From the NCBI GenBank assembly GCA_964106915.2, contig OZ066920.1: a stretch of DNA of 64,000 bases, one strand, 5' to 3'. Source of the stretch: Podarcis gaigeae (taxonomy: Eukaryota). Positions 26,402-59,368 of the stretch are shown here, piece after piece (within the stretch, counting starts at the first letter, position 1; each line of letters starts with the position of its first letter). Below the pieces are notes generated by a model that was not told the DNA's origin, made no database searches, and saw nothing but the letters and a program-made list of their open reading frames with translations. A program made the translations under genes and the position numbers.

Positions 26402-26437
<36 letters not shown>

Positions 26438-37014: not shown

Positions 37015-37215
37015 CGATGTTTACCCAGAGAGGGTGGAATCTAAAGGACGCTCTCGACAATCAATGGAGCCTTGTCTCAGGTTACCGAGCTGAGCTCCCC
37101 TAAATGAGTCCAGCAGGCTGATAACCGCAGGTTAAAGGCACCTGAGATAAACGGCTTCCAGTGGCTTGATGTTAGAGAAGATAAGCAGGGGCGGGGGGAT
37201 GTGCTTTTTATCTGC
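37015..37215. promoter_or_regulatory. Candidate endoderm enhancer (GATA x4, FOXA, SOX/ONECUT)
   Basis: WGATAA at 37119, 37145, 37179 and 37208 (minus); TGTTTAC at 37018-37024; ACAATCAAT at 37057-37065. Confidence 0.5.
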
Positions 37216-40200
37216 TGGAACTAGAGCAGGTTTCATTCACCGAGTCGCGATTAGAGAAGGATGAGAGTCTTTTGTAAGGTTGCATAGGACGGAGGCCAAG
37301 AAAGGATAGCATCGCAATTCTCCCTTCTTCTTGGGGCTTCATGGAAGTGAGGTGCTGGAAAGAGTGGGGCTGTCCTCCTGAACTACAGCCCCCACTCCCT
37401 GCCTACTCCTAGGGGCCGAGGTCCCTTGCTCCCCCAGTAGGCGACAGTCCCATGGGAAGACCCTGGAAAGCGCCTGCCGGTGGTGCGAGTAAGTGAACTC
37501 GATCAACCCTTAGTACAAGACAGGTTCATACGTTCATGATCTTTCCGAAAACCATACTATGGAGCGCTTGGAAGGAAGGAGATGAATCTCTTGAATCACC
37601 CCCATGAAGTGTTCAGACCTGCTCCAACTAGCCTAAGGGTGTCACACTTTTAGATCTCGCAACGACCTGCTTCAGCGTTCAGCAAACAGTACCTGCGTGC
37701 AATCCTATGCATGTTTACTCAGTGATTAATCTCATTGGCTTTGATTGGGTAAGGGCTTGATTAAGAACCCTTACCCCAAAACGTTGTGGAGTTTTTTTGC
37801 CTTCTGCTCAGGGTTGCAGATGGCTGGCTACTGAACCGGCTAGCGCCTGCTATTTACTCCGAAGCAGACTAATTGACTTTGCATCAGACGTCACTTTGAA
37901 ATGAATAGCTTTGCGCGTTGGCGCTTAGCAGGCCCTCTATTATAAAGTTACGCAGACTTACATTACTTTAAAAGATTCAATCAAAACATTTATTTCCTCA
38001 ATAAATATCTGAACTACAATAACGGTAGTAGTTATAATAGCCCACCAAATATAAGAATTGTTAAGGCTGTAATACTATGCACACTTACTTGAGAGTAAAT
38101 CCCAATTGATCTCACTGGAGTTTACCTTCCAGTAACCATGCGTGTCCAGTTTATTATAACCTTGTGTCCAACTCTTATATAATTGTATCAAATAGACTGA
38201 AGATGCTTGTTTTGGGGTGGGATGTGGCCTTCAGCATCTAAACTGCAATCTTGTGCACACAAACCTGAGGGTAAACGTCATGGGACTCTGTGAAGCTTAC
38301 TTCGAAGTAGATTGTTGGTCATAATCTGGTTTGTCCTGCGAGGCAAAACTCACTTGGCTTCAGGAATTTGTGTCAGATCCACATTTGTGGATTATCTTCT
38401 CCCCACCAGCCGAATTTCGAATTCTAGTGAAAGTCAGCCAGATAGGGGCTGATGTTTTTTCGGAAACAAATCCCGCTGAGATCCTACAAGTCTATAGGAT
38501 TGCTGCCGGTATTGTTTGTATATACCAAATATGGTATGAAACCTACAGAAAGATGGAATGGGTTTCACACACCTAGGAGCTAAAGCATAACTTCGAAGCG
38601 ATCCATTGATTTCCACGAAACATTCTTCCCTATTAACTTGCTTAAAGTCTCCCAGAAAGGCGAAGGCCCCGCGCAGGTGGAAGAGAAAGTGAGGGACAGC
38701 AGAGCCGAAGCTGGATCTAGAACGCAAATGAATGAGTGGATTATTCATTCTGAACTGCATTGTTAATTAAGGCTTCCAACTTAAACATACTTTACCAGAA
38801 ATTAAGCCCCACTGAACGGCTCCTGCATGCGACTCAGTCCACAAATCTGGACTGATGCTGCGGCCACAGACTACATAATATTTCATCGTAATCGTGTGTG
38901 AGGATGCCAACCCTTCAGCGGGCATCTGTACCTGCACTTTTAACAGCAGTTCCGTCTGCAGCAAATTGAGATGAATTCCTCTCACCTCCACGAAAGAGGG
39001 TTGCAGATCAAGCCGCTGTTAGAGGCACAGCAACCAGATCTGATTGCAAAGTTGGCTGCCATTTATATATGAGATTAATTTTGCTCTAAATAATTCTTGT
39101 TCTTTGGGTGCTTGTTTGGCAAGGCCTATTCCCTGCTGGTAGGAGAATTGCTTCCCTTCTGAATTTTAGCTTTTCAAAGATTTGGGGAAAGCAATTAGAA
39201 TGAAAAAGTCAGGACAGACAATCATGGCTTTGAGTGCAAATTAACCCAGCGCCTCCACCTTTAAAAATGGTATCAAATTGCACATGGCCCTTGATTTATT
39301 GTCTCTAGCCTGGGGTTTTTTAATGCATAGCTTACTATGTTTTAATTTTGCACCTGTTTGTTTGGGGGTCTAGAGGTCTTAATGCTGGAATGCAAACTTT
39401 TTATTTTATTTTCGTCTTCTATCATACCAAACTGACAAAGCGAACTGGCAAGAAGTATCAGTGAAATGAAATTGCTTTTTTGGTATTGATAAGGATTAAG
39501 CAATTGGAGGGAGCGAATAGGTATTTTCATTATTTACTTTCTAAAACATATGAATTTCTATGTTTTTATTGCCAATTTTGCTAAAAATAGTAAAAAAAAT
39601 CCTTTAAAAAAATCCTCGTAGCGAGTTCAGTATCATGTAGGCATGTAAAGTATAACTGCTGAAACCAGTTGGCCTTACTTCCGAGTAAGAGTAGGAAGGA
39701 TCAGACTTCAAAGCTAGCTGACCACTTGCTTCAGTGGGATATGAAGGATTCCTAAACCTGGACTGGATAGCAGGGTGCGAACCTACATACACTTCCCAAA
39801 CAGTAAGTCAATGCGGCTTACTTGCAAGTAGACATGGGTAGGCTCGCACTATTGCAATACACTCGTATGCATATCTACTGAGAAGTAAAGGAGAATTAAG
39901 TTCAATTAGACTTACTCTCAGGTATATGCGTATAAAACCAGCTTTACAACGCAGCTCTATTTATCTGTTCAAAAGAAAGGCCGATAATTTAGTCTGCCAA
40001 ATAAGTCTGCTTACACCAGTTGCCATGTACACTAACTCAGGAGTCAGTCTCACTTTGTTCAAGGGCGCGTATCCATTTATTTTACTAATTAGATACATCC
40101 AAATGAATTATTATATTTTCACTACACACGCGCGCGCGCACACACACACATTAGTAGCAAACTGCTCAAGCCCTTCTCAATTGACAGAACAAGAATAAGG

Positions 40201-40399
40201 CTATCAAAAGAAAAATTCTCGCTTCGTTCATATAATAAAATAACAGAGCAAGGAACCATAAATCACCGAACGACATATCTCCCCGTTTAATTTTTACTTT
40301 TTCGAAGGTTAGACGTTGCCGAGGTAGTTAAACTGTGGGGGGAACCCCTTTTCTTTCCGCCCACCCAACCCACAATTATCCGGCTTCCTTCTATGAAGT

Positions 40400-40630
40400 T
40401 TCTAGATTAATATCGGTGGAGCGAAAGGCGAGAGAATTCCCCGCTTGAACGGCAGGATTAGAAATATTTCTAGAAGAAAGAAGAGGGTGTGAATTGACTT
40501 TAGCCTGCAATCGTCTAAAGCGGAATTACAGCTTGTAAAATAGGTCTCCATCAGTCTCCCGGGAGACGGGCTCAGTTCGACTTGGGTGTTCCAGCTCCTT
40601 CTTACCCCTCGCAATAATTAGCTCCATCTC
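40400..40630. promoter_or_regulatory. Candidate FOXA2 floor-plate (Shh-responsive) enhancer with a Gli site
   Basis: Minus-strand GGAACACCCAAGT at 40580-40592, core GAACACCCA at 40583-40591. Flanked by TAATTA (40615-40620) and GGATTA (40455-40460), in non-repetitive DNA 3' of the gene. Confidence 0.7.
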
Positions 40631-43600
40631 GGTCCCAAGCGTGTGTCTTCCCCACCCCCACACCAGTGTTTCCTTATCCCCAATAAATGTTGTTGCTGTT
40701 TTGCCCGGCCCCCAAGTCCAAGAAACTTCTGGGGCACCCAAGGGACTTGCCCTGTTTACGAAAGGGTGGCGGCAAAAGATGCAAGATGCGAAAAGGAAGA
40801 AGGTTTTGGGTGCCCAACTCAGAGCTTGCGGCCGCCCTTGGGGGCTGGTGGGTTTGCCTTTAAGAAAGGAGAGAAGGGAGGGGGCGAAAGTGAGGAGTGT
40901 GACTTTCTTATCAAAGTGCGGGAAATGTCATTTTCTTTGTGCTTTGATGTCTGGTTGTCTTTCAGCCCATCCTTGCATGTCATTACCAGACTCCCAACAG
41001 AGAAAGAGGTGTGGGGCTTTTTTTGGTTTGGTTTTGTTTTGATGGGAAGTAAAGAAAAGAGTTGGTGGGGGGAGGAGAAGACGAGGATAAAATAGGGATG
41101 CACAATTAGATGATTTCTGCCCTTCTATTACAGCGGTGAATGGCAGAATTCTTGACAGAGTAGCGAACCGGCGGGTCTATTCTTAACTGGTTGAGTTAAC
41201 ATATACGGGTGTAAAGCGCCAGGGGCGGGCGGGCGGGCGGGCGGGTGAGGTTTCTTGTTATTTCCCCCCTCAGGTCTTTTTCCTTTAGAGAAAGTCGAGT
41301 TCTGAAGCAATTTCATCCGTTAAAAAAAGGAAAGGAAAGGGGAAATAGTCTGTTAGATCAATATTGAAGCAATGTTGCATGAAACCAAGTCAGGATTAGT
41401 CCAGGGAGCCACGTTGTTTCTGTGGGTCCAATTCAGCCACCCCAAATCCCAAAATATTGCTAGTCTCGCAGATTTCCAAAGAACTAAATCCCCTCCAGTT
41501 GGGTGCAAGTTTACCCGATCAAAACCGTGATGAATTTCAGTTCAGATCAGTGGAGCTGACTCCTCAGTTAGGACACTTGCTTGGGAGTAAACTCGGTTGA
41601 GCATAGAGGAGTCTACGTCTGCGTAAGCATGCATAGTATGGGGCTGCAAAGCTGCAGTCCTTCTTCACCCACTAACCTGCGACTATTGACCTCAAGAGGC
41701 ATTGCATTTTTGAGTCCATATGCTTACCTGGGGCTAAGCCCAATTCCACGGGGTTTCCTCCTGAGTAAACACGCATCAGTAGAGGCTGCGTGTCAGTTCG
41801 ACTTCTCTTTCCAGAAAAGGTTTTAAATGTTCGAGACTGCAAAGCTGCCTAGCTAATCCCCTGACAGCCGAGCTTTCTGTATACATGGCATTAAAACACA
41901 TTGAGGCAGCGCAGCCGCAACGCTCTTTTCTCCTTCAGGATTAATAGGTGTTCTGGACACTTGGACTTAGGGTGAGATGTGTTGAAAAGGAAATAAGACT
42001 CATAAACCTCTATGAAAGTTTGAATCGCTGGATAATGAAGAGAACAGGACTCCTGCACCTTCAGTTGCTCCACAGAAAAGGGAAATTTACTAACTATAGG
42101 TTGCATGATAAACCATAGCAGCTGAAATGTCCTCTCTCATGCAGCAATTAAAGGGCACGAGCGCTGCCTTCTTGGTTCACCTGACCATTCTTATTACTAG
42201 GGAAGTGCATCCCACTGAAATCCATCTAACTTGCCTCGAAAAAACTGCGTTTCCCATCTGGGGTGCGTCTTTTGTGATTCAGGGAACTCCTTCTTTGCCA
42301 AAATCTTCCGCCACCTTACGGTGCCGCGCCGGGTCCTCAAAAGGAGATTCCTAGGGGTGTGTGTGCTGTGGGGGTTTGGGGTTACCCTGAACTGTTCATC
42401 GAGGAAAGTCTCCAGGCAGTTAAAGAGGGTCAAACGCTGCTTACACTTGTGCCACCTAAACAGAGAAGAGCAGGAGGCCGAGGGGCATCGGCCGGGAGAT
42501 GGACAAGGAGGGGAGTCCTGAGGACGGAATGGACTAAACTGCCCTAAGGAGGGAGGCGGTAGCTTTCCGCTTTATAGACAATGCTGGACACGGTTGCCAT
42601 AGCGGCGGCCAGGACGCCTCAGCGTATGGATGCTTCTTAACGCAGCAACAAGGGCGCAGGGGGGCACCGAGGAGGAGCGGGGCCGGGGACGCAGAGGGGA
42701 GTCGGGGGGCCTCGTCCTCCTATCCCATCTACGGTTAGCTAGACGAAAAAAGGCGCAGCGCGCTTTCTGGGTCTTGGTTGATCCACGTCGCCTTTGCAAC
42801 TAAGCGCCCTCCGCCTCTGGAATGCAGCGTCGGATTGTTCCTTTGGTGGATGGAATGGAAACGTTTCTTTACAATCAGCCTAGACGTTCCCACCCCCTTC
42901 CTTGTTCTACCCCCCTTGCAAAATGCTGCCTTGCGAGCTCTTAACCCTCATTGTATGTCTTCTGTGCCTGTCTTGCCCCTCCTAGGCGCGCCTCGCGCCT
43001 CTCGCCTCTAAATTTAGGACAGGGTTCAACTAAAGATAGGCTCCCGGATCCATCTTCTACCACAGCAGGAGATATTTGAGAGATCTGGTTCTCTTTGGCT
43101 TGAATGGGGCAGAGGCGCAGCATCCGGTACTTGTAGGCCCCCTGGCTATCTCCGCCGCCCCCCACCAAAAATGCTCTAAACTGACCTCTTGAAGCCTCCG
43201 TGCTTACAAGTGCTTACCTTTGGCTTGGAAGTAAAATTGGGGGGAGGGGAATGAAATTTAGATGGTAAACTCCTTGGGGCGGGGACCTAATCCCCTTTGC
43301 TTATGTGACTCTCGGCTATGTGACTCTTGGTCGCCATCACATTATGGCGTAAGGGTTAAAAGGACGTGAGGGGGGGTGCCGAACCACAGTTTGCTTTAGT
43401 TCCCTCCAGAACTAGAGGGGATTTCTAAAATGAATAGCTCTGTGGTGTCTTCTGCCTTGACAGCTCTGCCTACTCCACCTCACGCGCCAATCCTCGGTAT
43501 GCTAGATGCTGGTTGTGATTATTCAGTTCCTAGAAAAAACAGCACTCTGAACATACCCAGAAGTGATGTGAGCATGTTCCAGAGCGGAGCCGTGAGACTG

Positions 43601-46219
43601 GGCCCAAATTCAATAATTCGCTGAATTGTCCGAATTCCATTTTATTAATAATCATTAAAAAGGCCGGTGGGGGGATGTTGCCAGCCCTGCTGCTGTGCGT
43701 TTAAACTGCAGCCTGGCGCAGTGAATTTTAGCGAAGTTTCTTGGTCTGGCTGCACAGGAGCAGTAAAAGAAAATGTTGGCAATCTTGCTTCGAAGGGGAG
43801 ATTGGTTTCTGCCTAGACGAAGTATGTTTACTATTTATGCACTCATTTTCCTTTTTAAAAAAATCTGGCCAAAAGAAAGATAAGGATCGGAAACACAAAA
43901 TTGCCCTTTTGGCAGATTAAATCTATTTCCAAGCGTCGGCTCCTGGCGCTTTCTGCAAGCCTCTCGCCCGACTCTGAAGAAGCTGCACCTTGCCTGCCTG
44001 ACCGCCTATCCCAGACACTGAGCGCCTCTTCCAGCTGAGATCAGGCTGCCTGAGCTTCGTGGAGACGAGGCTGGAGGTGATTTTCTTCCCTCAGCCCTCT
44101 ATCGAAAGACCCGAAGGGAAGGACGTGGATAGACACTCATTTAATGACAAGTAATTGACAAATCCGAGAGGCCGCATTACGAGTGGTCTAGGGGAGTATT
44201 AATTATTGAAAAACCATTAGCCTCTGTGTGTGTCCTGCAGAGATCCCATCTTGTTCGGGAAATATAAGCTGTCACGTCAGTTTAGATGGAGGGGAAATCA
44301 GATGAGGAACTCCTCCCCCTCCCTCTCTCCGCCGCAAGCCCCACCCGGAGGGAAACCGAGACGGCAGCGCCAGCGCACAGGCTTCCCACCGAGGAGACCT
44401 CTCGCTTTCTTTCCCGAAGTAACTCCTCTGGCTCTGCTCGCCTTTCCCCCGACGCTGCCTTGGATGGCGTTAAAGAGGGAGGGGGAAAGGCCTTGCAAGA
44501 GAAGGTCACCGAGGCAAGGAGAGTCAAATCCACGGAGGAGATATGGCGTGTCGCTCCACTTTTTCCTAAAATGCCGCCCCCCCCCCCAAATAGAGATTAC
44601 GATACAGAAAACAGCTTATCCCCTCTATATCTGATGTTCTGAGGGGCAGAGATTGGTCGACCAATTTAAAAGCTACTGAAAGACGTGGGTCCTAGCTGAG
44701 GTTTTGGGAGAACATTACGACTTCACTTCAGTTTTGTATCTGTAAAATGGGGGGAGGGGTCTTTAATAAAGATATATGATAAATGGGCAAAGGGAGCAAA
44801 AGCCGAAGTTAATCTCCTTCAAGTCAACGTTGCCTGAATATGCTTGGCTGGGCTGGACTGAATCTCGCCCTTGTTGCCCGAGCTTTCCCCCGTGCTCAAA
44901 GCTCTTTACCACTCATCTCTCCGTTACTACACAACGTGCGACCTTCGGGTGGTGTTGTGGGGCAGAAATAATTCCAAAGCACTTTTCACACACGCACACA
45001 AATTGAAAAATGCACATTTAACTCTCTTTTTTAACCAGAGCTACTTCGCAAAGTGGTGTAGAAAATTTGGAAATGCAACCGCCCTGCCCAGGGATCATGG
45101 CGGCTTCGCGCCAAAGGTTCGCTTCTCTGTACTGTATAAGAAAGAACACGATCCAGCGGGAAGTTCTGAGCAAGCCGAATCGGAATGAATGAGAAATGGG
45201 CAAAGGTAGCGCAGACAGGAGGACTTCTCGGTGCGCAGCTGAGAGTCACAGTGCATTGCAGACTACGCATTGCCCCAAAGGCCCACGTGTCCAGGGGTTG
45301 CGACCTCAGGCTTCCGCAGCCACACAACTGTCCCATGAGCCGCCTCCATCCCGTTCAAGTCCTTTGCAGTCTTGGGAATTTCGGCTTAAAAAACCCAATT
45401 TTTAAGAAGTTTTGTAACTCTTTTCAAGCCATTTCCCTGCAGTGTGATCCTATGCCGGCTTACTTGGAAGAAAGTCCAAATGTCCTCATCTGGGCTCACT
45501 CCCAGGTAAGCCTGCACAGCGTGGCGTCCTGCTGCTTCTGAAGCATCAAGGAAGGGAGGAAGGAAGGAGTCGGCGGAGGGCGGGTGGCTGGCGCAGAAGC
45601 CGAGAAGAAGAGCACAGCTGTTAAGACCCGCCAGCTGCTCCGAACGTCAACAAGGTCGATTCCAAAAAAGGGAGAGGCGAGGCGGGTAAAAAAGCTCGCA
45701 TCTCCCAAGCAAAAGAAAAACCTGCTGGATCAGGCCCAACGGCCCGCCAGAAAGCCCACTGAGCTCAGTGGCACTTGCTTCCGAGTAAGCCTGCATACTC
45801 ATGCTGCATGATAAGCCAGCACCTCTCTCTCATCCACTTTTTCTGTTCCGCACCCACTTCTTCCCACAACTCCAGCCAGTAAAACTTAAAGAGCCCAGGA
45901 GGCCGCTTGAGAATCAGCTCGCCAGGACCTTTAGGGGACGATCCCGGCTTCCCGATAACTATGGGGCAGCCCCCAGCTCACATTCCTCCGCTGGGGAGGA
46001 AGGTTTCTCGTAGCCACGGGGAACCTAACGAACATTTTTAATCTGCGGTTCTGGGGTCGGGGGAGATGACCCCTCCCCCCCTCCTCTAGGCCTGATTCTG
46101 ACCGGGGATCAGCAGCAGGTAGGAATCAGGCAAGACTCTCAGCTGCTTCTCCCGCCCGCTGCCAGCAGCGCAAAACAACAACGACGCGCACCAGCACCAC
46201 CAAACTTAAAAGTCCCTAC

Positions 46220-46435
46220 CTGATGCCCTGGAGCTGCCGGTGGCAGAAGCGACGGCGACGAGCCCAGACGCCCCGCTGACTGCAGCTCGGCGGCAAGGCA
46301 TCGCGGCATTTATTGGAGCGACTGTTGACTTTAGCACAAAGCAAAGATTTCACTGCCCGCTAGTTTAAAAATGAATATTTTACCAAGATATCGATCAGCG
46401 TTATAAAATTCAGTTAAGCACAATGGCTCGAAAGG
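46220..46435 (-). ncRNA. Candidate promoter and first exon of a LINC00261/DEANR1-like lncRNA downstream of FOXA2
   Basis: A unique AT-rich block inside a CpG island, with FOXA TGTTGACTTT (46323-46332), ONECUT ATCGAT (46390-46395) and TATA-like motifs, followed by a minus-strand donor CAG|GTAGGG at 46220/46219. Position and orientation match the mammalian lncRNA. No transcript evidence is available here. Confidence 0.45.
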
Positions 46436-47307
46436 AGCAGAGAAAACACACGCACACGCATGCACGCACACGTACACACAGGCAGCAGCATTCCTAATAT
46501 CTGTGTAAATTTGCTGAAGAATGACGTGCTGCGTGAAGTATACCTCCTGGAATTTGGCGTTAAATATTTATTTATTTTGTTGTTGTTGTTGTTAGTTTAC
46601 TGGTTTTGCCTATTCGCAGATGGCGGGGACTTAAATCACCAGCGGTTCAAAAAAATAACGGAAGGTGGGGTTGAATGAGGAAGGCAGACCGTGTGGTCCT
46701 TTGCAAAGCGACCCGGATCGAACGCGTGAAGAGGAAGTGAAGAGACCCCGACTCTAAAGGACATCTACACGCGCGCACACATTCCTCCCTCTCTCTTTTG
46801 CTTTTTGAAAAGGTCTTTTGGCAGAGGTATACATCTTATCGCTCGGGATCAACGGAGTGGGAGACAACTAAGTAGTTTAAAACGACCGCAGGCGCGATGG
46901 GACCGGCCAGGTTAGAGCATCACATTCGCGTCCCATTGTCCGCGCAATCGCTGCCATTCCAGGCCTCCATTCTTCTGCGCGACGGGAGCCTTTTATGTGG
47001 TAATGAACACACATTTTCCGCTTTGCTTCACAACGTGTGTGTCCTCGCGGGACACAGGCGGGCGGCGGGGAAGCGCGGCCGAATGGGGCCTCTCCACCCA
47101 CAGGCCTGTTTTTTAAAAGGTGCCTTTTGGGGGCCCCCAGTCTTCCCGAAAAAACAATGAGGGGGGATTTGAGAGGGATTCGCAAGTTTAGATCACTTCT
47201 TAAATCTATTAAAGTTGTGCGGGGGGTGGGGGTGGGCGAGGAGTGGACAGACTGTTGTCCGGAGCGAAAGCAATTGATATTTTATTTAAATAAATACATA
47301 TGTCTTC

Positions 47308-47377
47308 AAATAAACAAACAAACAAATAAATAAATAAATAAATAAATAATAACTAACTAACTAACCAACCAAATAAA
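47308..47377. repeat. Compound (AAAC)/(AAAT)/(AACT)n repeat
   Basis: Seen directly. Confidence 0.9.
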
Positions 47378-48299
47378 GCTGCTTCGACGATGCAGCCTGA
47401 ATTAATAAAATTAGAATGTGGGGAAAAGGTTGGCCGACGGGCCAGCTTTCTATGCCCTAGAGAAAAATATTGACGATCACATTTTAATTTATTTTTGGAT
47501 TTCAAAAAGCAATCGCGTCGCCTCCTGCAGATGGAATCTGAGGCCTGAAGAGGGAAGAGTCGAGAGAGGTGTGATCACTAAGGTGCAGATGACCAAAGTT
47601 TTGATATGATATGACGGATAGACAGGCAAATATTAGGGCAGAAGAGAAATTTACTAGTAGTCTTCAGTCTGAAGGTTCCCTTCATTCCTTTCATGGTAAA
47701 AGAGCATTAACCAGGTTGTTGGAGTAAATGTAAGAAAAAAAAGTTTATTTCTCACATTTCAGGCTAAGCCTTCTACAGCCCTAAGACATTCTGCTGAATA
47801 TCAGGATTCACCATATTTCTAACAGTTACCTTAAATGTACCCGCATCTATAGATCAATATCTATAAATTTGGGCAAACAACTACACAGGTGGAAATACAA
47901 AACTTCACAAACTAGCATCCAGGTAAGAGTGGCACTTTCCTGACAAGGTATGGCTTGCTGCAGCCATCCAGGTGGGCCTGGAGCACCGAGAAGGCTACAT
48001 TTATGAGAGCCGGGTGAGGTTTTATGGGCCGGTTTTTGTTTTGTTTAAATGCAACTGTGTTACAGTATTTCTCAAGTTTGGGTTCATGGTGTCAAGTCAT
48101 TTACACCTGCTTTGCATTTAGTCAAAAATTCCAGCAGTAAAACTGAAGCACTCAAATGTCAAATCTTCCCCAAAACAGGGAACCTGTGCACCAACTGGGC
48201 TAAGCCACTGAAGGTCTGCCAAATTCCCCTTTACAGTCAGCTTTCCTGCAGAGTTACTTAGAAGAAGTTGGTCATCACCTCACTGGAAATAATTTGTTC

Positions 48300-48465
48300 A
48301 ACCAGGCCTTGGGCTGATTAACACTCTATGGTTTTTTAAAATGTGTTTGTGGGAGGGGGTGCTTATTTGTTCTTGTTTGTTTTATTGTGTATTTTGTATT
48401 TTCATGTTGTGAACTGCCCTGTGATCTTTGGAAGCAGAGGAGTATATAAATTTGATTAATGATGA
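48300..48465 (+). mobile_element. L2 LINE 3' end fragment
   Basis: Reverse complement of the 25985-26180 family (gtgaactgccctgtgatc...tataaattt). Confidence 0.65.
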
Positions 48466-50750
48466 GGATGATGTCAATTAAAACAAGTAGGGGCATACTC
48501 CCCAGAAAGTTTACTGGCAGATATATGTATATTGTTCTGTCTGCACTGGAAGGTGAAAACAAACAACTATTACAGGTTATTATTTGTCTATTTATGCCAG
48601 GGTGGCTCATAATAATTTTGGGAGGTTAGGGCAAATGAAAATTTGACTCCACACAAGTTAAAAAGTGATGGCGGTGGAAATCTGTAAATTACTTGATTCT
48701 GTATGTTGGAGATGTACACTAGAACAACCTGGATCCATGTGGTGCTGTCACATTTGGTGGTACTGCAAAAGTGTGAGCAGGCTTTGGATTGGAGTAAAAC
48801 CAGTGGGACTTACTCCCAATGGCATTTTCTAAAGAGGGTCATAATCCTCCACAGGCTAAGAGCAGACTTTATGTATAGTCGACTTGAAGACTATGGAAGA
48901 CTACTGGAACACCAGCCGCTGGCGTGTCTCGACTGGCACCATAGAGGTACATTTCCAGGGGTTAGGAAAGTTAAATCTGTGGTGTTTGATTTGCAGAGGT
49001 TCGCAAATATGAAGGGGTCCTCCCCACTTTCTGAAGAAGAAGACGATTATTTCCAAAAGGCGATCTTATTAAATTCCGTGAGAATTACTTCCAAGTAGAG
49101 ATGTAGCTTCCAAGCCCTGAGAAAGAGATGCTTTTTCTGAAATAGTTCTATGCACCAAGTTTGCTACTGTTCGTTCTCTCGTGTGCGCCACACATCACTG
49201 TCTCCTCCGACGCCCACACATTTGTCAGGGAAGGATTTCACCTGCAAGTGAGTGTTGTATATGAAACAACCTTTAGCGAGAACGCAATCGGATACTGATC
49301 TTTCAGAATGCACTCCGGAGGAAGCTGGAAGGATGCTATAGAGCTCTCATTTGCTTCCCATCCATTTATTCGTGCAGCAAATGACCCCCTGCGAAATGAG
49401 TTTCCGGATCCTAAACATATCCAGTTTAAAAGCCACATGTTCTGTTTATACATCCCACTTTAACCAACCACCTTTAGACTCCCAGCCCTATAATTACCGG
49501 TACCTACCTGGAAGACCCATTGAACTCAGTGGGATTTGACATATGTAGGATTGGAATGCAAACGTTCAGCAGAACTGCATTGTGCGAAGCGCTCTCTTTA
49601 ATGAATTTACGCGGCGCCCTAAGCTTAATTACTCGGAGGACGACTCATTTCCGTTAAAAACTGAAATTCTATGCATGTTTCTTCTGATGGCGTTCAGACT
49701 ACCGGTAACTTCTGAACAAACATGCAAAGGGCAGGATGGGCTACAATCCTAGCAAGACTTTCTGGTAAGTCCCAATGAACTCCACGAATGGGGTCGGGCT
49801 GCTCTGTGGGAAGGGGATAAACGTTGCCAATTGTGTATTAAAATAGCACCTTGTCCTAAATCGTATTTATTCACGTGAAGAACGTTTCACCAAATTCAGG
49901 AGAGGGGTTCTTCTTTCTCTCTCTCTTAAAATAAGTTTGCAACTCTAAAGACTGCAGGGACCAAGGCTTCAAAAACTCACATACTGATCTGGGAGCAAGT
50001 CCCACTGATTTAAAGGACACTTATTTGTAGAAGATGATATTTAGTGGCGCTCTCTTTGAGTAACTGTGCTTAGAACCTTTGTTCATCTGAGCTCCAGTCA
50101 GGGAGCATTGGAAGAAGATCTCAACTGGATTCACGCAAGCGCTTGCCTGAATGCATGTAATGGAATCTTTGAGGTGGTAAGAAAGAGTTGCTGTGGTCCG
50201 AGTGGAGGCCACAGTCCGCACATGCAAGTCGTCACATGATGAACGGAATCAAAGCCAATCCTTCACTTCTAAATAGACGTCTGAGTAAAGGTTTCCGTAC
50301 GCTCTGTGCATCCATCCATTAGGCTGCCCTATTTTGCATTTTCCTCCTTTTGTTCGCGCTCCAAGTGAAATGTCTCAGAACATCAGTCTCGCGCCCTACA
50401 GATGTGGCAGAGGCAGAGCACAGTGGCTAGCAAAAAAGAAAAAGAAACAAAAACCCCCTCAACCAATACGTGTTTATTCGGTAGCGAATTGCCTGACATT
50501 CAGTGGACCTTACTCCCCGGTAAGTACTCATATCCGAGCAGCCTGAGGTAGGGATGAGGACCTCCCCTCTTATTTCTGCCCTGAATTCCTTAAGTGGCAA
50601 CTTGTGATGTTAGGATAATACTGACCTAGCTTGCCAAGCTGGTGTGAGGATTACAAGACAGAGTATTATGTGAACTGCTTTAGAAACTCTAAAGTTCTGC
50701 TAGAGGACTGGGGTTAAACTATTGAGTTATGCGCCACCGGCGGTTTCTGC

Positions 50751-50972
50751 CGTTTGGAGTGTGAGTGCCTTGGACGATGGCCTGGGAGACCAGGGCCAGA
50801 ATCCTACTCAGCCGTGAAGCTCCCTGGGGGACCTTGGGCCAGCCACTCCCACTCAGCCTAACCTGCCTCACAGGGTTGCTGTGTGGCCAAAGGGGGGGGG
50901 GGGAGCCATGCTCACCACCTTGAGCTCCTTGGAGGACAAGGTGGCATATGAATGTAGTAAATAATAATAAAT
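50751..50972 (+). mobile_element. tRNA/CORE-type SINE with an L2-like tail (Squam3/MIR-like)
   Basis: ctgggagaccagggccagaatcc...accttgggccag...cagcctaacctgcctcacagggttgctgtg...gagctccttggag...(AAT)n. Confidence 0.75.
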
Positions 50973-52816
50973 AAGAAACGAAGTTTTGTTTGACTTCCGT
51001 TGGCCAGGTAATCTTCTCTACCTGAGTCTAGTTGGAAACCTTAGGATTCAACCGAGGTTAGTTCCCATGAACTGACCATGAACCCTACACCTGCTTCTTG
51101 GGAAGGATGCCCCGCTTATTCCAAGTGGATCGATTCCCCATCCAGTGAGCCTTCGCTGGAAGCCGTCCCTCTCCTAACCAGGCTCAGTGCTGCGTCTTTG
51201 AGGTCCTGCTAAGCTATGCCCTCGAAAGGCCAACACAAAAACCCCCTTCCTAGGGGGGAACGAGCATCAAATGTCTTCCTTCCGGATGAGCCTTCTGAGC
51301 AATGGCGCGCTGCAGCCTGGCTAGAGGTGCGGCACAACGCGTAGCTCGCGTACTCAGAAGTAAGTCCTCCGCAATTCAATAGGTCTTACTTCCAAGTAAG
51401 TATCATAAGATATTCAAAAGCCATTGAAGACCTTACTCCTGAGTAAAATGTGCATAAGGTGACGCGCATCAGTTTCACTGAAAATCAGTGAAATTCTTAC
51501 AATACTCCGAAGTTAAACTTACCGTTTTCAACTGTTTTCAGGATCGGTGTGAAAGGGAAGAATATAGTTGGCTGGTTCGAGATCCACCCCCGTCCACCAC
51601 AGGACTGCGCGATAGTGCTTGTAGTCAGTCGAGAAAATCCACTCTGGAGTTTCATTTGGACTCGGCAAGCGAAGGGAAGCTCGTAACTCCCCTTCGCCTT
51701 CTGACCAGCTCCTGCCACAGGCAAGGCCTCTCGTGTGTATGTGTTGTCACTGTTGCGTGTGTGTTGTGCGCAGATTTCTGCATGAGCAAGATGGGGACTG
51801 ATTGGAATCCCATTTACTCATCCCGGTTCTCGCGTCGCTAAGAGTCTCCAAAGAGGAGCCCCGACGTTTATCCAAAGACGACTTAGAGGAAGAAGACAGG
51901 CCTTCTCAGTGAATACGGCTCTGGAGGGCGGACAGAAGAGGAGGAATATAGGAGCATCGAGCTTTCAAACAACTTCCGAATTGCCCAGCATTAGGTTAAA
52001 GCCGTCCTTCTTGCTAACTGCGTTTCAAGTAAGCTAGAACCCAAATCTTTAAAGAAAAAGAAGCTAGAATTCATCTAACCAATTTGTTTTAAAAGTCCCG
52101 AAACTCTTAACCCAACTAGGCGTGTTTTGGTTTCCACTAGGCGCTTGAGGCTTCGCGCGCTTTCTCTGATGCAGAGAAAGGTTCTAGCAAGCCACACTCA
52201 GTTCATTATGAAAGGCAAGAGTAGTCTCGGTTGATGATAGTCAACGTTCCTCGTACTCAAGAGTAGACCCACTGAAACCAATGGTTTATGCTTTTCAAGC
52301 CGCCACCTCCCGCTTGGAGTATCATAATGTGGCTTTAATAGTAGTTGTACTTCAGGATTGCTATATTGGCTGCGATTGTGTGGAACGCGAGGCTGAATAG
52401 CAGGTACAGTCAAAGATGAAGCACTTTTAAGGCCGGAGATTGAATGAGATATGCGGTTAACATTATAAGTGAAATCAATGAGTCATAAAAATACTTTGGC
52501 TGAATACTGTGCTGTTATGTAAATGATTCCACCATTATCATGATGCCCAGATGTCGAGAATACCCCTTTTAACAGAGGTTGCAATCCTAGTCATGGACGG
52601 GAGTCAGCGGGGATGTCTAGGCAAGTATAACTCGTGGGAGCCTACCCGATTGCAAATGTGTAAGGTAACCGATGGGCTTTCCTATCAAGTAATGTTCACA
52701 GGATCAAATAAACAAAGCAATATTTAAAGTCAAGCAGGCAAAGCAATCATATACATACATAGAATAGGCAGCATCTATATATATAGGCCTCGACTAAGAG
52801 CCTAACAACCCAGTAA

Positions 52817-52878
52817 CAGAATCATAGCATTGCAGAGTTGGAAGGGACCACGTGGGTCATCTAATCCAATCTCTGCCA
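52817..52878 (-). mobile_element. Short CR1 3'-tail fragment
   Basis: agaatcatagcattgcagagttggaagggacc...ggtcatctaatcc. Confidence 0.65.
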
Positions 52879-53529
52879 ACAAGAAAGACCCTATTTTCAG
52901 TCCGACTTGTCCTAGGACTTCCATGGGCTGCAACTCAGGGAGTTGGCAGACTTTAGGCTTTTCTGATCTATTTTGCTTTTTACTAGAATCCCAAGATCTA
53001 TCAACCAGATTCTAGTGCCTCTGAGCCCATTCCGGGCCTAGGAGTTGGTCTGCAGTATCAGAACTGAGCTCACAACCCCAAAACAACCCCCCAACCCCCT
53101 TCATTTCAGCAGTTTACTTTGGACGAAGCAGGAAGTAATTTTGCTAAACAGTTGGGAGTCTGAAACCAAACTGCTTGTGAATCTAGTGCATGTCAGGCAA
53201 AGATTTACCATAGATTCAGCTCTGTCTTTACTTGAGAATAAAGTGTATATTTGGGAGTAAGGTTGCAGTCTTATTCACAGTTTAGACGAGGAATGGTAAG
53301 CGTGCCAACAAGATTTGATGATGTATGAAACATGATACTCCAAGTTCATATGTGCATTTTAAATACGCATGTTATTCATACAGGCCATCTTGGAGAGGGC
53401 CTACTCTAAGCACAGTAAGCCCATTGGCAAGCAATATCAAGAGCTAAAATTAGTTCGTTATCTTTCCCGCATCTCTTTGCATTATACTAGAAAATAACAG
53501 ACAGGTATTATTGTTTAAGTTAAGAAAGG

Positions 53530-54462
53530 GGGAAAAAATCTCCAACAGCAATTTAATATATGGTTTGTGAGAATTTGGTCGGTCCTTACCAGAATACACA
53601 TCTATAAACCATAAATAAAGCGTACAAAAACGATAAATTAATTCGATCGGAGTCGTTTACTCTCCCGGTAACATCAAAACTTCCTGTGTCAAATTACAAT
53701 CTAAAGTCCATTTTTGGGTACCCCCCTCCCCCGAGTTCATACAGCCTTTTTGATCCTCAGTTTTGAAATCTAACACCGGTTCACACACACACTTATTTCT
53801 GTGTCACTTTCACACCCAAAAATAGATATATTTATAACTCCCCGCAACAAACAAAATAAAGAAACAGACAAGGAGACTCCTAAAAGGAAACCTCCAACTC
53901 AAATAAAATTTAAATCGGTGTCTGAAGAAAAGTGACGGTGGTCAAGAGCCGAAGCCCACGGAACTGGATGTTTTCCACGCCCCACGGTTGTTGGAGATCA
54001 ATCCTGTTTTCCCGACGCCGGCGAGAAAAGAGTAGAAGAAAAATGAGCTTTAAATTACACAACAGCAAACGTCGATTGAATATTACGGGAGCCTTTTCTA
54101 AACTAGGAGCGGGGCGCGAAGTCCAGGATTCTTTGCCAAAAGTGGTGCGCGGGAGAGATGGGGTCAGTGCGCTCCTCATAGAAAGTTCTCTTTTTCATTT
54201 AAAAAATAGGGCTAGAGAATCTTTAGTTGATACAAAGGCGCCGGAGCTCCCAGGTAGTGGGTGGAGGCCACCGGATTGTTTTAGTCCGATGGGCTTTGGA
54301 TATGGATTGGGATCGGGAGGCGACGCCGTGGAATAAACTGACCTGGCTTTGGATTCTTTCCAAAGTCTACATCATATCTCAAATCTCCTCCTGCCCAGAG
54401 AAGTCTCGGGTTTGTCCTGGGGAGAGAAAGAGGGCATTGGCCCTTGGGGGGTGGGATGCCCT
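53530..54462 (-). other. FOXA2: FOXA2 3'UTR (distal end approximate)
   Basis: Follows the stop codon, is AU-rich in its distal part, and ends near a candidate ATTAAA. Confidence 0.6.
53552..53557 (-). terminator. Candidate FOXA2 polyadenylation signal ATTAAA
   Basis: The minus strand reads ccatatATTAAAttgctgttggagattttttcccccttt, with a GU/U-rich downstream element. Confidence 0.55.
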
Positions 54463-55746
54463 TTAGGAAGAGTTCATGATGGGCCTGGGGTAGACCCCTT
54501 GGTAATAGGAGGCGTCTCCGGCCAAGGGCGAGGTCTCCAGGGCGCTTTTGTTCGTGACGGAGCCCATGGCCAGGCTGCCGGGCACCGGCGAGCCGTAGCT
54601 GCTGTAGTGCATCACCTGCTCATAGGCTTTGAGGTCCATTTTGTGGTGCGGGTGGTGCGGGTGGTGCGGGTGGGGGTGGTGCTGGTGCGGATGGTGCGGA
54701 TGGTGGGGGTGCTGCTGCTGCTGCTGCTGCTCTGTGGAGGACATCAGGTTGGTGATGGAGAAGGGGTGGTTGAAGGCGTAATGGTGCTCCGCCTTGAGGT
54801 GCGCCTCGTGGGAGAGCCCCGCGTGGGCGTGATGCTGCGCCAGCAGGTGCTGCTGCTGCGCCGGCGACGGGGCAGGCTCCGGGTGGCCCTTCAGGTCGGC
54901 CAGGGCGCGCTTGTGCTCGTGGCAAGGGGAGGCGCTGGAGTGCGGCGATTCCGGAGCCCCGTTGGGCAGGTCGCGTTCCTGCGGCGCCTGCGAGGCCGCC
55001 TTCTTACCTTGCGACGGGGCTCCCGCCGACGAGGCAGGCGAGGCGCCCTGATTCTGCTGCTGCTGCTGCTGTTTGGAGCCCAGCGGCTTGTCGCACTTGA
55101 AGCGCTTCTGGCGCCGCAGGTAGCAGCCGTTCTCGAACATGTTGCCCGAGTCCGGGTGCAGAGTCCAGAAGGAGCCTTTGCCCGGCTTGTCCGGCGAGCG
55201 CGGNNNNNNNNNNNNNNNNNNNNNNNNNNNNNNNNNNNNNNNNNNNNNNNNNNNNNNNNNNNNNNNNNNNNNNNNNNNNNNNNNNNNNNNNNNNNNNNNN
55301 NNNNNNNNNNNNNNNNNNNNNNNNNNNNNNNNNNNNNNNNNNNNNNNNNNNGCCATGGTGATGAGGGAGATGTACGAGTAAGGCGGCTTGGCGTGCGTGT
55401 AGCTCCGGCGATAGCTCTTGGCGTCGCGGGAGCGGCCCAGGCCCGCCGCTTGTCCGTACGCGCCGCTGCCGCCGGCCCCGACGGGACTCAGCGCCGAGTA
55501 AGCGCCCAGCGCGCCCCCCATCGAGCCGGCCTGCGCGCCCAGCGGGCTCAGGCTGGGGCTCAGGTGCGCTGCCATGCTGGCCATGGCCCCCGCGCCGGGA
55601 GAGAGGTTCATGCCCGCCGGGCCGGCCGCGTAAGACATGCCCATGGAGCCGCCGGACGCCACCGTCGTCATGTTGCCCGCCGTGCCCATGGCTGGCATGC
55701 TCATGTAGCTGTTCATGCCCAGCCCCGCGTTCATGGTGGAGTAACC
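54463..55746 (-). CDS. FOXA2: FOXA2 last coding exon: forkhead domain (partly N-masked), eh1/region II, C-terminal region III, TAA stop
   Basis: The acceptor tttgcag|GGT at 55747/55746 is in frame with the previous exon. The ORF has [19 protein letters not shown]...[60 protein letters not shown] and [14 protein letters not shown]. The GSFW forkhead variant and the C-terminus indicate FOXA2 rather than FOXA1 or FOXA3. Confidence 0.97.
55204..55351. other. 148-nt run of N inside the forkhead-coding sequence
   Basis: Seen directly; the reading frame is preserved across it. Confidence 0.99.
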
Positions 55747-56633
55747 CTGCAAAGGCGACAAGAGCGGGGAGCCCAGCGGTTAGAGGAGGTGGCCCACCTG
55801 TCTCCCACCCGAGACCCACAACTCCCTGGCCACGGGATGGTGGGCAACCCAGCCCTCAGCCCCAACCACCGCATATTTCGAGGGAGCTTTCTTTGGTGTA
55901 ACGGTCTCCTTCGGAGTCTGTGTGATACAATGGAAGGTGAAAGTACCCAGCGCCCCAGTGAACATGGTGCAGGCACTCTTGGCCCCTTGAATTTAAATGG
56001 AAGGCTACAGCAGGTGCTTGAATCTGGGGGGCAGTTAAATTGAAACCGGTCAGATTTACATCCGAGTAAACACGGTCCGGAAGCTGTACGCCGGCTCCCT
56101 GGCCAATAAAGCGAGATGAGCGCCGCAACCCCAGAGTCGGTCACGACTAGACCTAGTAGTCAGGGGTCGCTTTATCTTTACCTTAAACACGGGAGAGAAT
56201 CGGCTTGTAAATCTCGCCAAATACAATTTAAAAAGTGGCAGGGGGAGCGCCTAACTTAGACTCGATCGTGTCTATGGTTAGGATAGGGGTCCAAGCATTG
56301 CAAACTTGGATACCAAATGCGCTAAGCTGATACAGGTCTCAGTGAAATCGATGACATACAAAACAACAACAACAACAACAGGACAAAGTCGACCAGTCTG
56401 GTCATAACAGTATTCCTGCACCCTCATTTTAAAAATTCCCGTTGGCTTTAATGAGCCTTTGCCCAAGTAACGTGTTTCTTATTGCGATGGAAGAAAAGTA
56501 GGACCCAGGTGGGTGTTTAAAATATTTCCTTGTTCGTTGGCCGGGGAATTGTTCCTGTTAAAACCCAAATGCTAATGCAAATCTACCAGAAAGCAAGCCC
56601 GCTCTCTACCGCACACACTTTCCGGGTCTAACC

Positions 56634-56721
56634 GTGCAATCCTATGCTTGCTTACTCAGAAGTAAACCCCACTGTGTTTCGCGGGACTCACCCCCAGCTA
56701 AGCGCGCAGAGGATTAGAGCC
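56634..56721. mobile_element. Representative copy of a ~90-bp palindromic MITE (PIF/Harbinger-like), in the FOXA2 intron
   Basis: gtgcaatcctatgcttgcttactcagaagtaaaccccactg...gggactcacccccagctaagcgcgcagaggattagagcc; many degenerate copies occur in the window. Confidence 0.65.
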
Positions 56722-57443
56722 TCAGACCCCCATATCTGACTCCCCCGAAGCCTTAGCGATTCTCTTGGGTTTCAATGCAATTTACTTCCCAAGTCACTTG
56801 TGTTATAGTTTCTTAACCCAATAGAAGCCGGGTCCATCAAAACGACTCGATAGAATTTGTGTTTCGTTTCGGTAGGATTCGATTTCAACCCGAATTTCTC
56901 ATACACTGTCTAGGGAATATCCGTCGTGATCTTCCGACAACTTTGTTTCTTTACTGCGGGGGAGGATTGCATCGAAATCACTCGGGGGTCAAGACCTCAG
57001 CCCTAGGCAGAATTAAGCGCCATGGAAATCGGTGTGGGGGCTCTGTTCAAAATCCAAGGCTAAAAATGGGGCTGACGGCTCCAGGAGGGAACCTGAAATG
57101 TGATTTGACTCAAGGAGGGAAAAGATCTCGGTTGTCAAGATCCGGCTGGTTTCTGGAGCAAAGGAAGGAGGCACGCAACCTGGAGAGCGGCAGGAGCTTG
57201 TGCGTAAAGCTTTGCTCCGCTCATTCAAGAAAGAATTCTTGTCCGGCTTTGGGTTTCATTTGCCCCCAGACTCCGAGCCCTCCCAGGGCGAGATTTCGAG
57301 CAATAAATGCGCCCCCTCTTCCCCAGGTTCCTTATAGCTCCCCCCTCAAACGCCCTTCCTCTTCCCCCCCCCCAACCTCTCTCTGCCAAACACAACTTTG
57401 TTAGGATAGCGCGGCTAGGCATGGCAAAGGATTTGGAGGCTTC

Positions 57444-57506
57444 GCAAGTCAATATTTGATCACAAAGTTAATATTATCTCAAGGCTAACACAGTGTTGTA
57501 TAAAAA
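57444..57506. promoter_or_regulatory. Intronic FOXA/HNF1-type element
   Basis: AAGTCAATATTTG (57446-57458, overlapping forkhead sites) lies next to GTTAATATTA (57467-57476, HNF1-like), ~200 bp inside the intron. Confidence 0.6.
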
Positions 57507-57650
57507 GAGGGCGAGAGGGAGAGAGGGAGAGAGAGAGTCCTGTTTTTTAGCGGAAGGAGGAGGCTTGGGGATTGGGTGGGGGACCCACACACAAACAGAG
57601 AGAGCGAGAGAGACACCCACTCACGCAAACAGACAGAAGTTGCCATTTAC

Positions 57651-57737
57651 CTCCGGCTCGCCGTAGTAGTTGCTCCACTCCGTGTGCTCGTGTCCTTCCA
57701 TTTTCACGACTCCTAGCATACTGGAAGCGGAGTGCAT
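57651..57737 (-). CDS. FOXA2: FOXA2 first coding exon ([29 protein letters not shown]); ATG at 57737, alternative in-frame ATG at 57719
   Basis: My translation of the reverse complement matches the FOXA2 N-terminus (mammalian [23 protein letters not shown]). The exon is 87 nt and ends at a phase-0 donor GAG|GTAAAT (GT at 57650-57649). Confidence 0.95.
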
Positions 57738-58200
57738 GGCAGTTTAAAATTTAACAGCCACAACAAGCGACGACAGAGGGAGAGAGAGCAATCCAAAAAA
57801 AGGGGGGGGGAGAGAAAAGGAAAACACCCTCCTCTATAGCCCTCCCTCCTTCTCCTTGCCTCGTTCCCTCTCTCCCTCTCCCTCCCTCCCTTCTCCCTCC
57901 CTCTTTCCTTCCTTCCTTCCTTCCCTCCCTCCCTCCCTCCTTCTTCCCCCTCCCTCTATGTGTGTTTTGGGGGAGGGGGAGGGTGGGCTCGCTTTGCGTG
58001 GGGTTTCTCCCTGCCCGCTATTGCTGCTGCCGTTGCCGCTGCTACTACTACTGCTTGGGTGGGTTTCGCTGAGAAGAGTTGCCCGGAGGCGAAGGCAAGG
58101 AGGAGGAGGAGGAGGAGGAGGGTGGAAGGAGGAGGAGGAAACGAAGTGGTGCAGTGACGTGGGTGCCGGAGTGATATAGCAGCCAGAGGCCAGGCTAGCC
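57738..58200 (-). promoter_or_regulatory. FOXA2: FOXA2 proximal promoter and 5'UTR of the long (MHSASS) isoform
   Basis: Contains ttgttgtggctgttaaattttaaactgccATG, a GA-rich purine tract (57845-57955), TATA-like gcTATATc (~58174-58179) and a CRE/E-box-like TGACGTGG (58155-58162); CpG-rich. Confidence 0.65.
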
Positions 58201-59346
58201 TCCAATCCCCAGGACCTAGGCAGGCGATTTGAATAATCAGCTCCCACCTAGGGCTCTCCTCGCCAAGACGCCGGCTGCTGCCCTTGAGCACCCGTGGGCG
58301 CAACCTGGGGGGAGGCTTTTTGCCCCCGGACTAAAATCACCTTCTTATGCTATACCCTGGTCATGAATCTGGAAGGACTACCTCCCGGTTTCCTACTGAC
58401 TTGGATAGTTTCAGTACTCTAGTTCACCCATCCGCACGCCTCCAGGCCGTGCTGCTGAAGAACATTTCTACGGTTGCTTTCATGTTTTGCGGTGGATTGC
58501 TCAGAGGGGGCTGACCCTATATATCTAGGGATTTTATGTTACGATCGTCATCAACAATCACAACAAACATCTTCCTCCAAGGAACTTGCGAGGTTGAATA
58601 GAAATGCTTTAAATGTATGTATGCACACAATATAGTCAAACCAGGCACGCAGTTCGTTGATTACTATGGGGATTTAGACGCTTGCTTAAGGTTGCGCAGT
58701 CCTATGCACACTTAGTAGGTGGTCCTATTGGAATGTGTAGAATGTATAGGATTGAAATCAATAGGGCTGAAAAGTGCATGCCTTAAACTAGATCGCACCA
58801 TAGGCAGAGAAAAGAAATAAAGTTGATGCTTTAACCATGGTCTGTTTCTTCAGAAGGTAACTAAGGAAACCTCCGGCAGCCACAGTCCAGACTTTCGACT
58901 TCGGTTGAAATGCTTGGATTTCAAAAATTCCAGAGGAACTAGGCTGATAGTAATCACATTGGCCTAGCCATCCACTTCCCAAACTATTCGCTTGGCATAA
59001 AGGGCGGACGGGGGTCGTAAGGAAGGCATTTCATTTCCCCAGTTCTAACTCTGCTAAAGATTTCAATAGAAGATTGATTGGTTCGCTGACAGCTAAAATG
59101 GAACCTCTGTGCTCAAGAGCAGTATATCTTTGAGTACCTACTGCTCTAGGCTAGACAACCAACAGGAAATGGCGTCAGAAACAGAATGCAGCAAAGCAGT
59201 TCTGCCGCGGCCCCCTTGCGCTCCTGGCCATCCGGAAGGGCCTCGCGCCCTGGGCATCCACCGCCGCCCCCGACCTGCCTTCAGAGCAGGCGGCCAGCAG
59301 GAGCTCGCCGGGTGTACCCGGCACCCTAGGGGTGACCCATCGCCAA

Positions 59347-59368
59347 CATTTCCTAACTAAAACAAACC
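59347..59368 (-). promoter_or_regulatory. Candidate upstream (exon-1) FOXA2 promoter element GGTTTGTTTTAGTTAGGAAATG
   Basis: Resembles the rodent HNF-3beta promoter FOXA/C/EBP element TGTTTGTTTTAGTTACGAAATG (recalled, not aligned). It lies in a CpG island ~1.6 kb upstream of the ATG. Confidence 0.5.

Follow-up and report, generated by a model that had tools for sequence, protein, structure and literature searches.

The window analysed here, a stretch of 64,000 nucleotides of contig OZ066920.1 from Podarcis gaigeae (assembly GCA_964106915.2), holds a FOXA2-like gene within a broad CpG-rich domain, together with 35 copies or fragments of a short, non-coding, multicopy element of 90 bp, most of which are crowded into that domain. 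The pattern is real, locally strong and known from a single locus, and it runs contrary to the scarcity of transposons that is usual in developmental regions. The ratio of observed to expected CpG is about 0.2 across most of the first half of the window and 0.5–1.0 from about 33 to 61 kb. The features on which the analysis depends are the following:

28001–30500, no strand: separate CpG-high island, CpG ratio 0.74, 2 of the 35 copies
33501–61500, no strand: CpG-high segment over FOXA2, CpG ratio 0.65 after masking, 29 of the 35 copies
54463–55748, minus strand: coding part of FOXA2-like exon 2, no copy of the 90-bp element inside
57651–57737, minus strand: coding part of FOXA2-like exon 1, 29 codons

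The FOXA-type gene is encoded on the minus strand in two exons. Its product gives Pfam matches to Forkhead_N and HNF_C, and a 36-residue piece of it finds HNF3-beta, that is, FOXA2, as its best match in the PDB. An assembly gap of 148 N (55205–55352) falls within the forkhead domain of exon 2, the reading frame continuing across it, and at 54634–54732 (minus strand) the C-terminal part carries a Gln run followed by a long His/Pro-rich tract, which we take to exceed the mammalian length. The CpG map was obtained by a two-state segmentation in which repeats, element copies and exons were masked, repeat masking being needed because young repeats at 24–27 kb inflate the unmasked version. Outside the CpG-high segments the ratio was 0.10–0.19, as against 0.65 over 33501–61500. 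A CpG ratio raised across the gene body and beyond, the feature that characterises broad non-methylated islands over developmental genes, is found at FOXA2, and 33501–61500 would thus represent, to judge from its sequence, a broad non-methylated domain over this gene. Several stretches of the domain are free of copies at 7 bits or more (42300–45400, 45850–48750, 52700–56000 and 56800–61500), and are candidates for constrained regulatory cores. Also inside the domain, about 14 kb downstream of FOXA2, positions 40583–40591 (minus strand) match a Gli-site variant exactly; matches to the Gli-like 9-mer were not above chance in the window (19 vs 16.4 expected).

The repeat family was modelled from a seed of eight window copies chosen by coordinate, and the iterated hidden Markov model (HMM) converged on a unit of about 90 bp, the length given in a preliminary description of this DNA. 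The strand-symmetric HMM gave 32 matches of at least 6 bits, compared with 0.175 per locally dinucleotide-shuffled window (40 shuffles), while the reversed window gave no match of at least 4 bits with this model, and in leave-one-out runs all 15 training copies were recovered at 11–49 bits. The 90-bp repeat is therefore real and constitutes one family, as had been proposed. The working set of 35 copies or fragments is the union of the symmetric and oriented models at 7 bits or more, the null for the oriented model at this threshold being 0.175 per window. Positions for individual copies had been suggested beforehand: inside 37690–58760, 20 of the 22 have a match of at least 6 bits and 58690 is borderline (5.8 bits), but 52577 (4.7 bits) fell away; outside that interval three of four stood and 7101 did not. 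A reading of 7101 as one copy divided by a short interspersed element (SINE) at 7133–7442 failed, the two sides scoring 5.5 and 4.2 bits. The copies, with one additional match under the threshold, are:

795–828, plus strand: core-only match counted among the 35, 8.7 bits, by eye probably of a sibling palindromic family
1659–1739, minus strand: near-full copy, CpG-low flank
3215–3312, minus strand: full copy, CpG-low flank
28130–28233, plus strand: full copy with a 9-bp insertion, just within the island
29143–29238, plus strand: full copy, in the island
31807–31883, plus strand: internally deleted copy in the CpG-low gap, its two terminal 5-mers identical
34299–34353, minus strand: weak fragment, 9.7 bits
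37696–37788, plus strand: copy with left half well kept, FOX-like 7-mer intact
38062–38143, minus strand: copy without left end
38240–38311, minus strand: copy without left end
38453–38483, plus strand: weak fragment, 7.1 bits
38769–38817, minus strand: weak fragment, 7.0 bits
39621–39711, minus strand: copy
39771–39851, minus strand: copy whose left end and that of the 39852 copy lie 3 nt apart
39852–39935, plus strand: full copy
40021–40068, plus strand: fragment, 12.5 bits
41537–41572, no strand: weak fragment, 7.9 bits, overlapping the 41561 copy
41561–41649, minus strand: full copy
41706–41792, minus strand: full copy, FOX-like 7-mer intact
42200–42252, plus strand: fragment, 11 bits
45437–45530, plus strand: full copy
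45717–45811, minus strand: copy
48795–48819, minus strand: weak fragment, 8.2 bits
49057–49104, minus strand: fragment, 14.8 bits
49500–49554, minus strand: internally deleted copy
49665–49736: extra match under the 7-bit cut, 6.4 bits
49739–49786, minus strand: right-half fragment, 7.8 bits
49964–50026, minus strand: right two-thirds of a copy
50454–50547, plus strand: full copy
51081–51164, plus strand: weak copy, 7.8 bits
51327–51408, plus strand: full copy
51425–51466, minus strand: half copy abutting the 51327 copy
51503–51539, plus strand: weak fragment, 8.6 bits
52636–52692, no strand: weak fragment, 7.2 bits
56002–56082, minus strand: FOXA2-intron copy interrupted by a SINE-like insert, probable left end just past 56192
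56627–56724, plus strand: best-preserved full copy, FOXA2 intron, 49 bits in leave-one-out

As regards its identity, the window gave no Rfam match at gathering score, and Pfam applied to the 126 open reading frames (ORFs) of at least 85 aa, excluding the FOXA2 region at 54.3–58.3 kb and ORFs containing N, found no transposase and no recombinase, yielding one reverse-transcriptase remnant and three weak chance matches. An exact 23-nt stretch of the element had no match in the literature or in bacterial and archaeal genomes, and the best-preserved copy had none among plasmids. The literature search turned up neither this family nor a description of its concentration in CpG-rich domains, most subscription papers and the Repbase/Dfam entries lying outside the search, so that absence from print is not shown; no such family is named in the accessible portion of the main text of PMC6050309. 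The repeat is probably present in existing repeat libraries.

The interval 37690–58760 holds 28 of the 35 copies, which amount to about 1.3 per kb and occupy 9% of the bases there, so that the density across the window was not uniform in the HMM scan and the crowding originally described in this interval is confirmed. The scan statistic gave a p of about 5e-6 by copies (27 of 32) and 0.028 by merged clusters (12 of 17). The enriched zone is, however, wider than the interval first delimited, two more copies lying in the CpG island at 28001–30500. This crowding is not an artefact of training or detection. It could be argued that copies are present everywhere and are simply more decayed or less visible in the flank, the main model having been trained mostly on domain copies. 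Nevertheless, a model built from the flank copies at 1659 and 3218 only found 14 further copies of at least 8 bits in 37690–58760 and one in 24000–37689, with no further copy in 1–24000 and none past 58760. Spiked copies at 30% divergence were recovered at 0.95 in flank and 0.88 in domain background, and hiding about 88% of copies would need 50–55% divergence, a level of decay that leaves no more than 3% of them with 15 bits or more. Moreover, both copies in 1–24000 score 18–19 bits under a domain-only model, with none at 6–15 bits. Such an explanation is largely refuted, and extremely improbable.

The link to CpG-rich and, by implication, unmethylated DNA turned out to be sharper than first stated. 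The CpG-high segments, 47.7% of the window, contain 31 of the 35 copies, 1.02 vs 0.12 per kb (about 8-fold), and 15 of the 19 clusters (p 0.0055). Within the CpG-high state, the terciles of low, middle and high GC hold 17, 12 and 2 copies respectively, and the coding exons of the FOXA2-like gene hold none. The contrast is not accounted for by base composition, the GC of the low tercile (0.41) being no higher than that of the flank, nor by target supply, as each kb of CpG-high DNA has fewer TWA, TNA and core-like motifs than elsewhere. The younger repeats show the opposite distribution, as had been noted, in the form of a mild depletion: self-comparison revealed six other families, of whose 26 members 7 lie in CpG-high DNA (30 matches less four overlapping; p 0.026), covering 3.1% of its bases vs 8.7% of the flank, coverage being a lower bound which includes only families repeated within the window. 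Their placement differs from that of the 90-bp clusters with a Fisher p of 8e-4.

Inside the domain the copies are themselves clustered (8 of 28 gaps are of at most 120 bp, vs 3.5 expected, p 0.011). The clusters had been called head-to-tail, but only three of six close pairs, those 57–97 bp apart, share orientation. One or few source copies might have seeded the neighbourhood through local hopping or short duplications, the overlap with CpG state being coincidental, and both the short gaps and the circular shift of copy positions against the CpG map, whose p is only 0.045, are in line with such a burst. The mixed orientations of the close pairs argue against it, and neighbouring copies are no more alike than distant ones (0.54 identity in 8 pairs vs 0.515 in 201, p 0.32, a weak test at this age), which leaves a local burst very unlikely.

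The element was rightly described as ancient, being the oldest of the families seen, with a median pairwise identity of 0.47 vs 0.71–0.81 in the others. Copies are about 30–35% diverged, and identity to the consensus is 0.55–0.82 in domain copies (n=18) and 0.65–0.70 in flank copies (n=3). In the FOXA2 intron, a shortened SINE-like insert at 56080–56184, one aligned stretch of which is 90% complementary to the copy of that repeat at 25213, is nested in the 56002 copy with a 9-nt duplication, and therefore this copy predates the SINE insertion. The CpG ratio of the copies is 0.60 inside the domain vs 0.08 outside; they hold 64 CpGs over 40 columns, whereas the consensus has one. Such gains point to long residence of the domain copies in germline DNA without CpG loss, where they would have spent most of their life. 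The difference in GC-biased substitution inside and outside was not significant (equilibrium GC 0.52 vs 0.40, p 0.10). In columns 32–33 of the oriented model, 23 domain copies show CG in 5 cases, TG in 6 and CA in 6, as would be expected of one ancestral CpG split into subfamilies. The domain itself may be older than the element, by analogy with the broad islands described as a vertebrate-wide class (PMC3583005, in part).

This age bears on the main rival explanation, differential survival, according to which the element was once evenly spread at about 1 per kb, and since then large deletions and dilution by younger retroelements have turned over the methylated flank, the old DNA of the domain being retained. 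That the crowded family is the window's oldest is what such a history would give, as are the heavier coverage of the flank by younger repeats and the reverse-transcriptase remnant at 11376–11687; constraint on developmental regions is, moreover, documented (PMC2241635, in part). Nevertheless, about 88% of the flank copies would have had to vanish without trace. Short sub-models trained on domain copies found 10 new flank fragments at 12 bits vs 10.6 under the null, that is, no excess, and the surviving flank copies are as intact as those of the domain, two observations which count for preferential insertion. In addition, small indels were not shut out of a domain in which such insertions came to make up 7% of the length. 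Differential survival thus appears somewhat doubtful.

Exaptation would be a different reason for persistence, the copies being kept by selection as sites for FOXA (autoregulatory) or other factors, as splice donors or as hairpins; the preliminary description had noted a FOXA-like motif in the consensus and named exaptation among the possibilities. Of the 12 forkhead-consensus 7-mers of CpG-high DNA, 4 lie within copies, which make up 7% of that DNA, and the alignment is best conserved at the left internal stem-loop. However, the forkhead-like 7-mer is exact in 3 and relaxed in 5 of the 24 copies that cover it, as under neutral decay; it ranks 7th of 84 windows in identity, and one of its columns is split into 14 T and 10 C. 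Only 4 of 27 copies retain the donor-like 6-mer without change, and 3 of 19 fold below a z of -2. Among doubly changed pairs 28 of 68 re-pair, about what transition bias gives, suggesting that pairing has not been maintained. At the divergence of these copies, family-wide exaptation is unsupported and highly unlikely; they look like decayed passengers, single exapted copies being possible.

The explanation to which we give about an even chance, for this one locus, is that of an extinct non-autonomous DNA element which inserted preferentially into open, germline-unmethylated DNA, was tolerated as short and CpG-poor, and then decayed neutrally, targeting and retention not being separable from a single window. 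The element would have been moved in trans by an enzyme encoded elsewhere, which may have reached open, unmethylated germline chromatin more often than the methylated flank and, within open chromatin, would have chosen stretches richer in AT. Exons and the most GC-rich cores would have been spared or purged of insertions, and the other insertions tolerated, an element so short and nearly CpG-free not needing to draw silencing, so that the surviving copies could decay without family-wide function. Several points weigh against this. Methylation and chromatin state are deduced from CpG content alone, and a broad lizard FOXA2 island is not mentioned in the accessible part of PMC3583005. One domain amounts to one replicate, the circular-shift p being only 0.045, and the separate island adds little: its 2.5 kb hold 2 copies, and the adjoining 3-kb gap holds 1. 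All the comparison families are younger and so do not bear on how well equally old DNA survives in the flank, and large deletions and later insertions would leave no fragments. Furthermore, developmental loci are generally reported to resist both classes of transposon (PMC2241635, in part).

The anatomy of the element is relevant to the enzyme that may have moved it. The majority consensus of 90 bp has 62 self-complementary positions and a perfect 12-bp inverted repeat at 6–17 and 74–85, while its outer 5 positions are non-complementary, the inverted repeats being thus subterminal. From one end to the other, the element runs through a terminal unit of 5 bp, an arm of 12 bp, a polar interior in which three small stem-loops lie, the same arm inverted, and finally another 5-bp unit that is directly oriented. 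The palindrome first described thus needs correction, as the element is polar and its outer 5 bp are direct repeats; its left end disagrees with the consensus given at first, which repeats one 6-mer, inverted, at either end. Orientation determined from the interior alone was that of the full model for 21 of 21 copies (in 27 of 30 random starts), an agreement which columns taken from the oriented alignment may favour. With the ends located by the arms only (16 left, 10 right), the terminal 5-mers match in direct orientation at 1.94 of 5 positions vs 1.24 under the null, a value reached by 0 of 5000 random sets, and in inverted orientation at 1.29 vs 1.24 (p 0.30). The direct match comes mostly from the first three bases, the last two of the left repeat being variable. 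For the 5-mers, agreement within copies (1.71) was no better than across copies (1.57; n=7, low power). The flanks are weakly T-N-R on the left, where the base at -1 is a purine in 15 of 16 (G in 8, A in 7), and T-N-A on the right, with TTA modal (3 of 15). The TWA duplication proposed for the flanks was not seen: the 3-nt flanks are identical in 0 of 7 copies and match at 0.57 of 3 within vs 0.90 across copies, a test of low power, as about 1 in 7 would be expected at about 30% decay. The element presumably resembles reptile Chompy-type MITEs (miniature inverted-repeat transposable elements) as well as further short palindromes of reptiles whose core is similar, a likeness which would speak for PIF/Harbinger.

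The assignment to PIF/Harbinger previously made from the termini and flanks is not established, given the subterminal inverted repeats, the direct outer 5-mers and the TWA duplication not seen in the low-powered comparison of flanks. As in PIF/Pong/Harbinger MITEs such as mPing, the element is short and non-coding, with inverted arms and weak T-N-A/T-N-R flanks, and the abutting copies at 39771 and 39852 share exactly 3 nt between their ends. Unlike them, its inverted repeats end 5 bp short of the termini, its terminal 5-mers are direct, none of seven 3-nt flanks match, and of 16 bases standing beside the left end, 8 are G and 7 are A. With the Crypton elements (CryptonS/F/A; Eulor5/6) it has in common a short, family-wide terminal direct repeat resembling a target-site duplication (PMC8969392, in part; further support in part of PMC13465315), Crypton terminal repeats being of 5 and 6 bp and in some cases imperfect (PMC3212892 Additional file 1). 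Joining the ends would give arm, spacer and arm of 12+5+12 or 11+7+11 bp, of which only the second register fits recombinase sites (arms of 11–13 bp, spacer of 6–8 bp; PMC3212892, in part); neither a circle nor an empty site was seen. On the other hand, the 126 ORFs contain no recombinase gene or autonomous partner, animal Cryptons are described without terminal repeats (PMC3212892, in part), and the dependence of the direct match on mostly three bases likewise counts against a Crypton, the likeness being one of description only. Ancient Crypton-derived repeats are known in vertebrates (PMC5753468, in part). A PIF/Harbinger-type DDE transposase is tentatively placed first, at somewhat less than an even chance, another class of enzyme is somewhat unlikely, and a Crypton-type tyrosine recombinase rather unlikely; the element is filed under neither PIF/Harbinger nor Crypton.

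Among other candidates, Kolobok and piggyBac were dropped on end structure, judged by eye. A DDE element with a 5-bp duplication predicts copy-specific, orientation-free 5-mers, while those observed are family-wide and polar. Helitron2/Helentron elements have asymmetric terminal inverted repeats, end hairpins, a 5' T and insertion upstream of T (PMC8969392, in part), whereas the arms are here symmetric and 5 bp from each end.

As to behaviour, the nearest analogue is mPing, with its near-gene, GC-avoiding placement (PMC10288884, in part). Preferential insertion of short elements has been argued for anoles (PMC7561263, in part), and in zebrafish DNA transposons lie nearer genes (bioRxiv 2021.04.08.439009, in part). 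Squamate Hox clusters likewise contain mobile elements inside developmental regulatory regions, with DNA transposons slightly over-represented in anoles (PMC6791295, in part) and hAT elements in Darevskia introns (PMC9498476, in part), a subject which has been reviewed (PMC7786948, in part). There, however, the classes are mixed and often recent, while here one ancient 90-bp family, about 8-fold enriched, follows CpG state amid depleted younger repeats. The 28-kb CpG-rich stretch over a developmental transcription factor, poor in young repeats, also recalls transposon-free regions and broad non-methylated islands (PMC3583005 and PMC2241635, both in part), from which it differs in that about 7% of the CpG-high DNA is the 90-bp element.

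Other repeats were also observed in the window. A CpG-rich element of 444 bp (24227–24670), bounded by terminal inverted repeats of 39 nt (85% complementary) and containing two palindromes, is a separate, young-looking non-autonomous DNA transposon. Short palindromic pieces at 466–615, 778–832, 52236–52302 and 60795–60835 share the central motif of the 90-bp element by eye, with different arms, and may belong to sibling families present here as single copies; single-sequence searches with five sibling palindromes returned self-matches only, bar one 9-bit match. Remnants of long interspersed elements lie at 11011–11687 and 17041–17573, the Pfam match to RVT_1 at 11376–11687 having an E of 1e-4, and the repeated 3' tail beside it recurs at 17466, 31992, 33071 and 52816. 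A small family (34429–34572, 60844–60997 and 5685–5748) has two of its three members in CpG-high DNA, and at 22836–23062 a local inverted repeat, with 36-nt arms 80 nt apart, adjoins a long trinucleotide microsatellite. The window's repeats presumably include a Sauria-like SINE family as well as CR1-like and L2/MIR-like ones.

Whether blocked insertion or selection keeps transposons out of developmental domains is an old question (PMC2241635, in part), and a family enriched about 8-fold amid depleted younger repeats makes it testable family by family. If the pattern were specific to this locus, or resulted from flank turnover, the element would be an ordinary old MITE. If it held genome-wide, such domains would let in elements that are short and poor in CpG and keep out those that are long or CpG-rich, and the family could both explain part of the unclassified squamate repeat load (55% unknown in the Darevskia Hox clusters; PMC9498476, in part) and date ancestral germline hypomethylation. 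Moreover, in view of its ends the element might have to be moved toward the recombinase-type elements, a proposal that can be checked. It is conceivable, although quite improbable, that a minimal non-autonomous Crypton-like element has been taken for a Harbinger-type MITE, having integrated by site-specific recombination, preferentially into the germline-unmethylated developmental domains of early squamates. In that case, 'transposon-free' developmental domains would be open to one class of element, and Crypton-like fossils would map ancestral germline open chromatin genome-wide.

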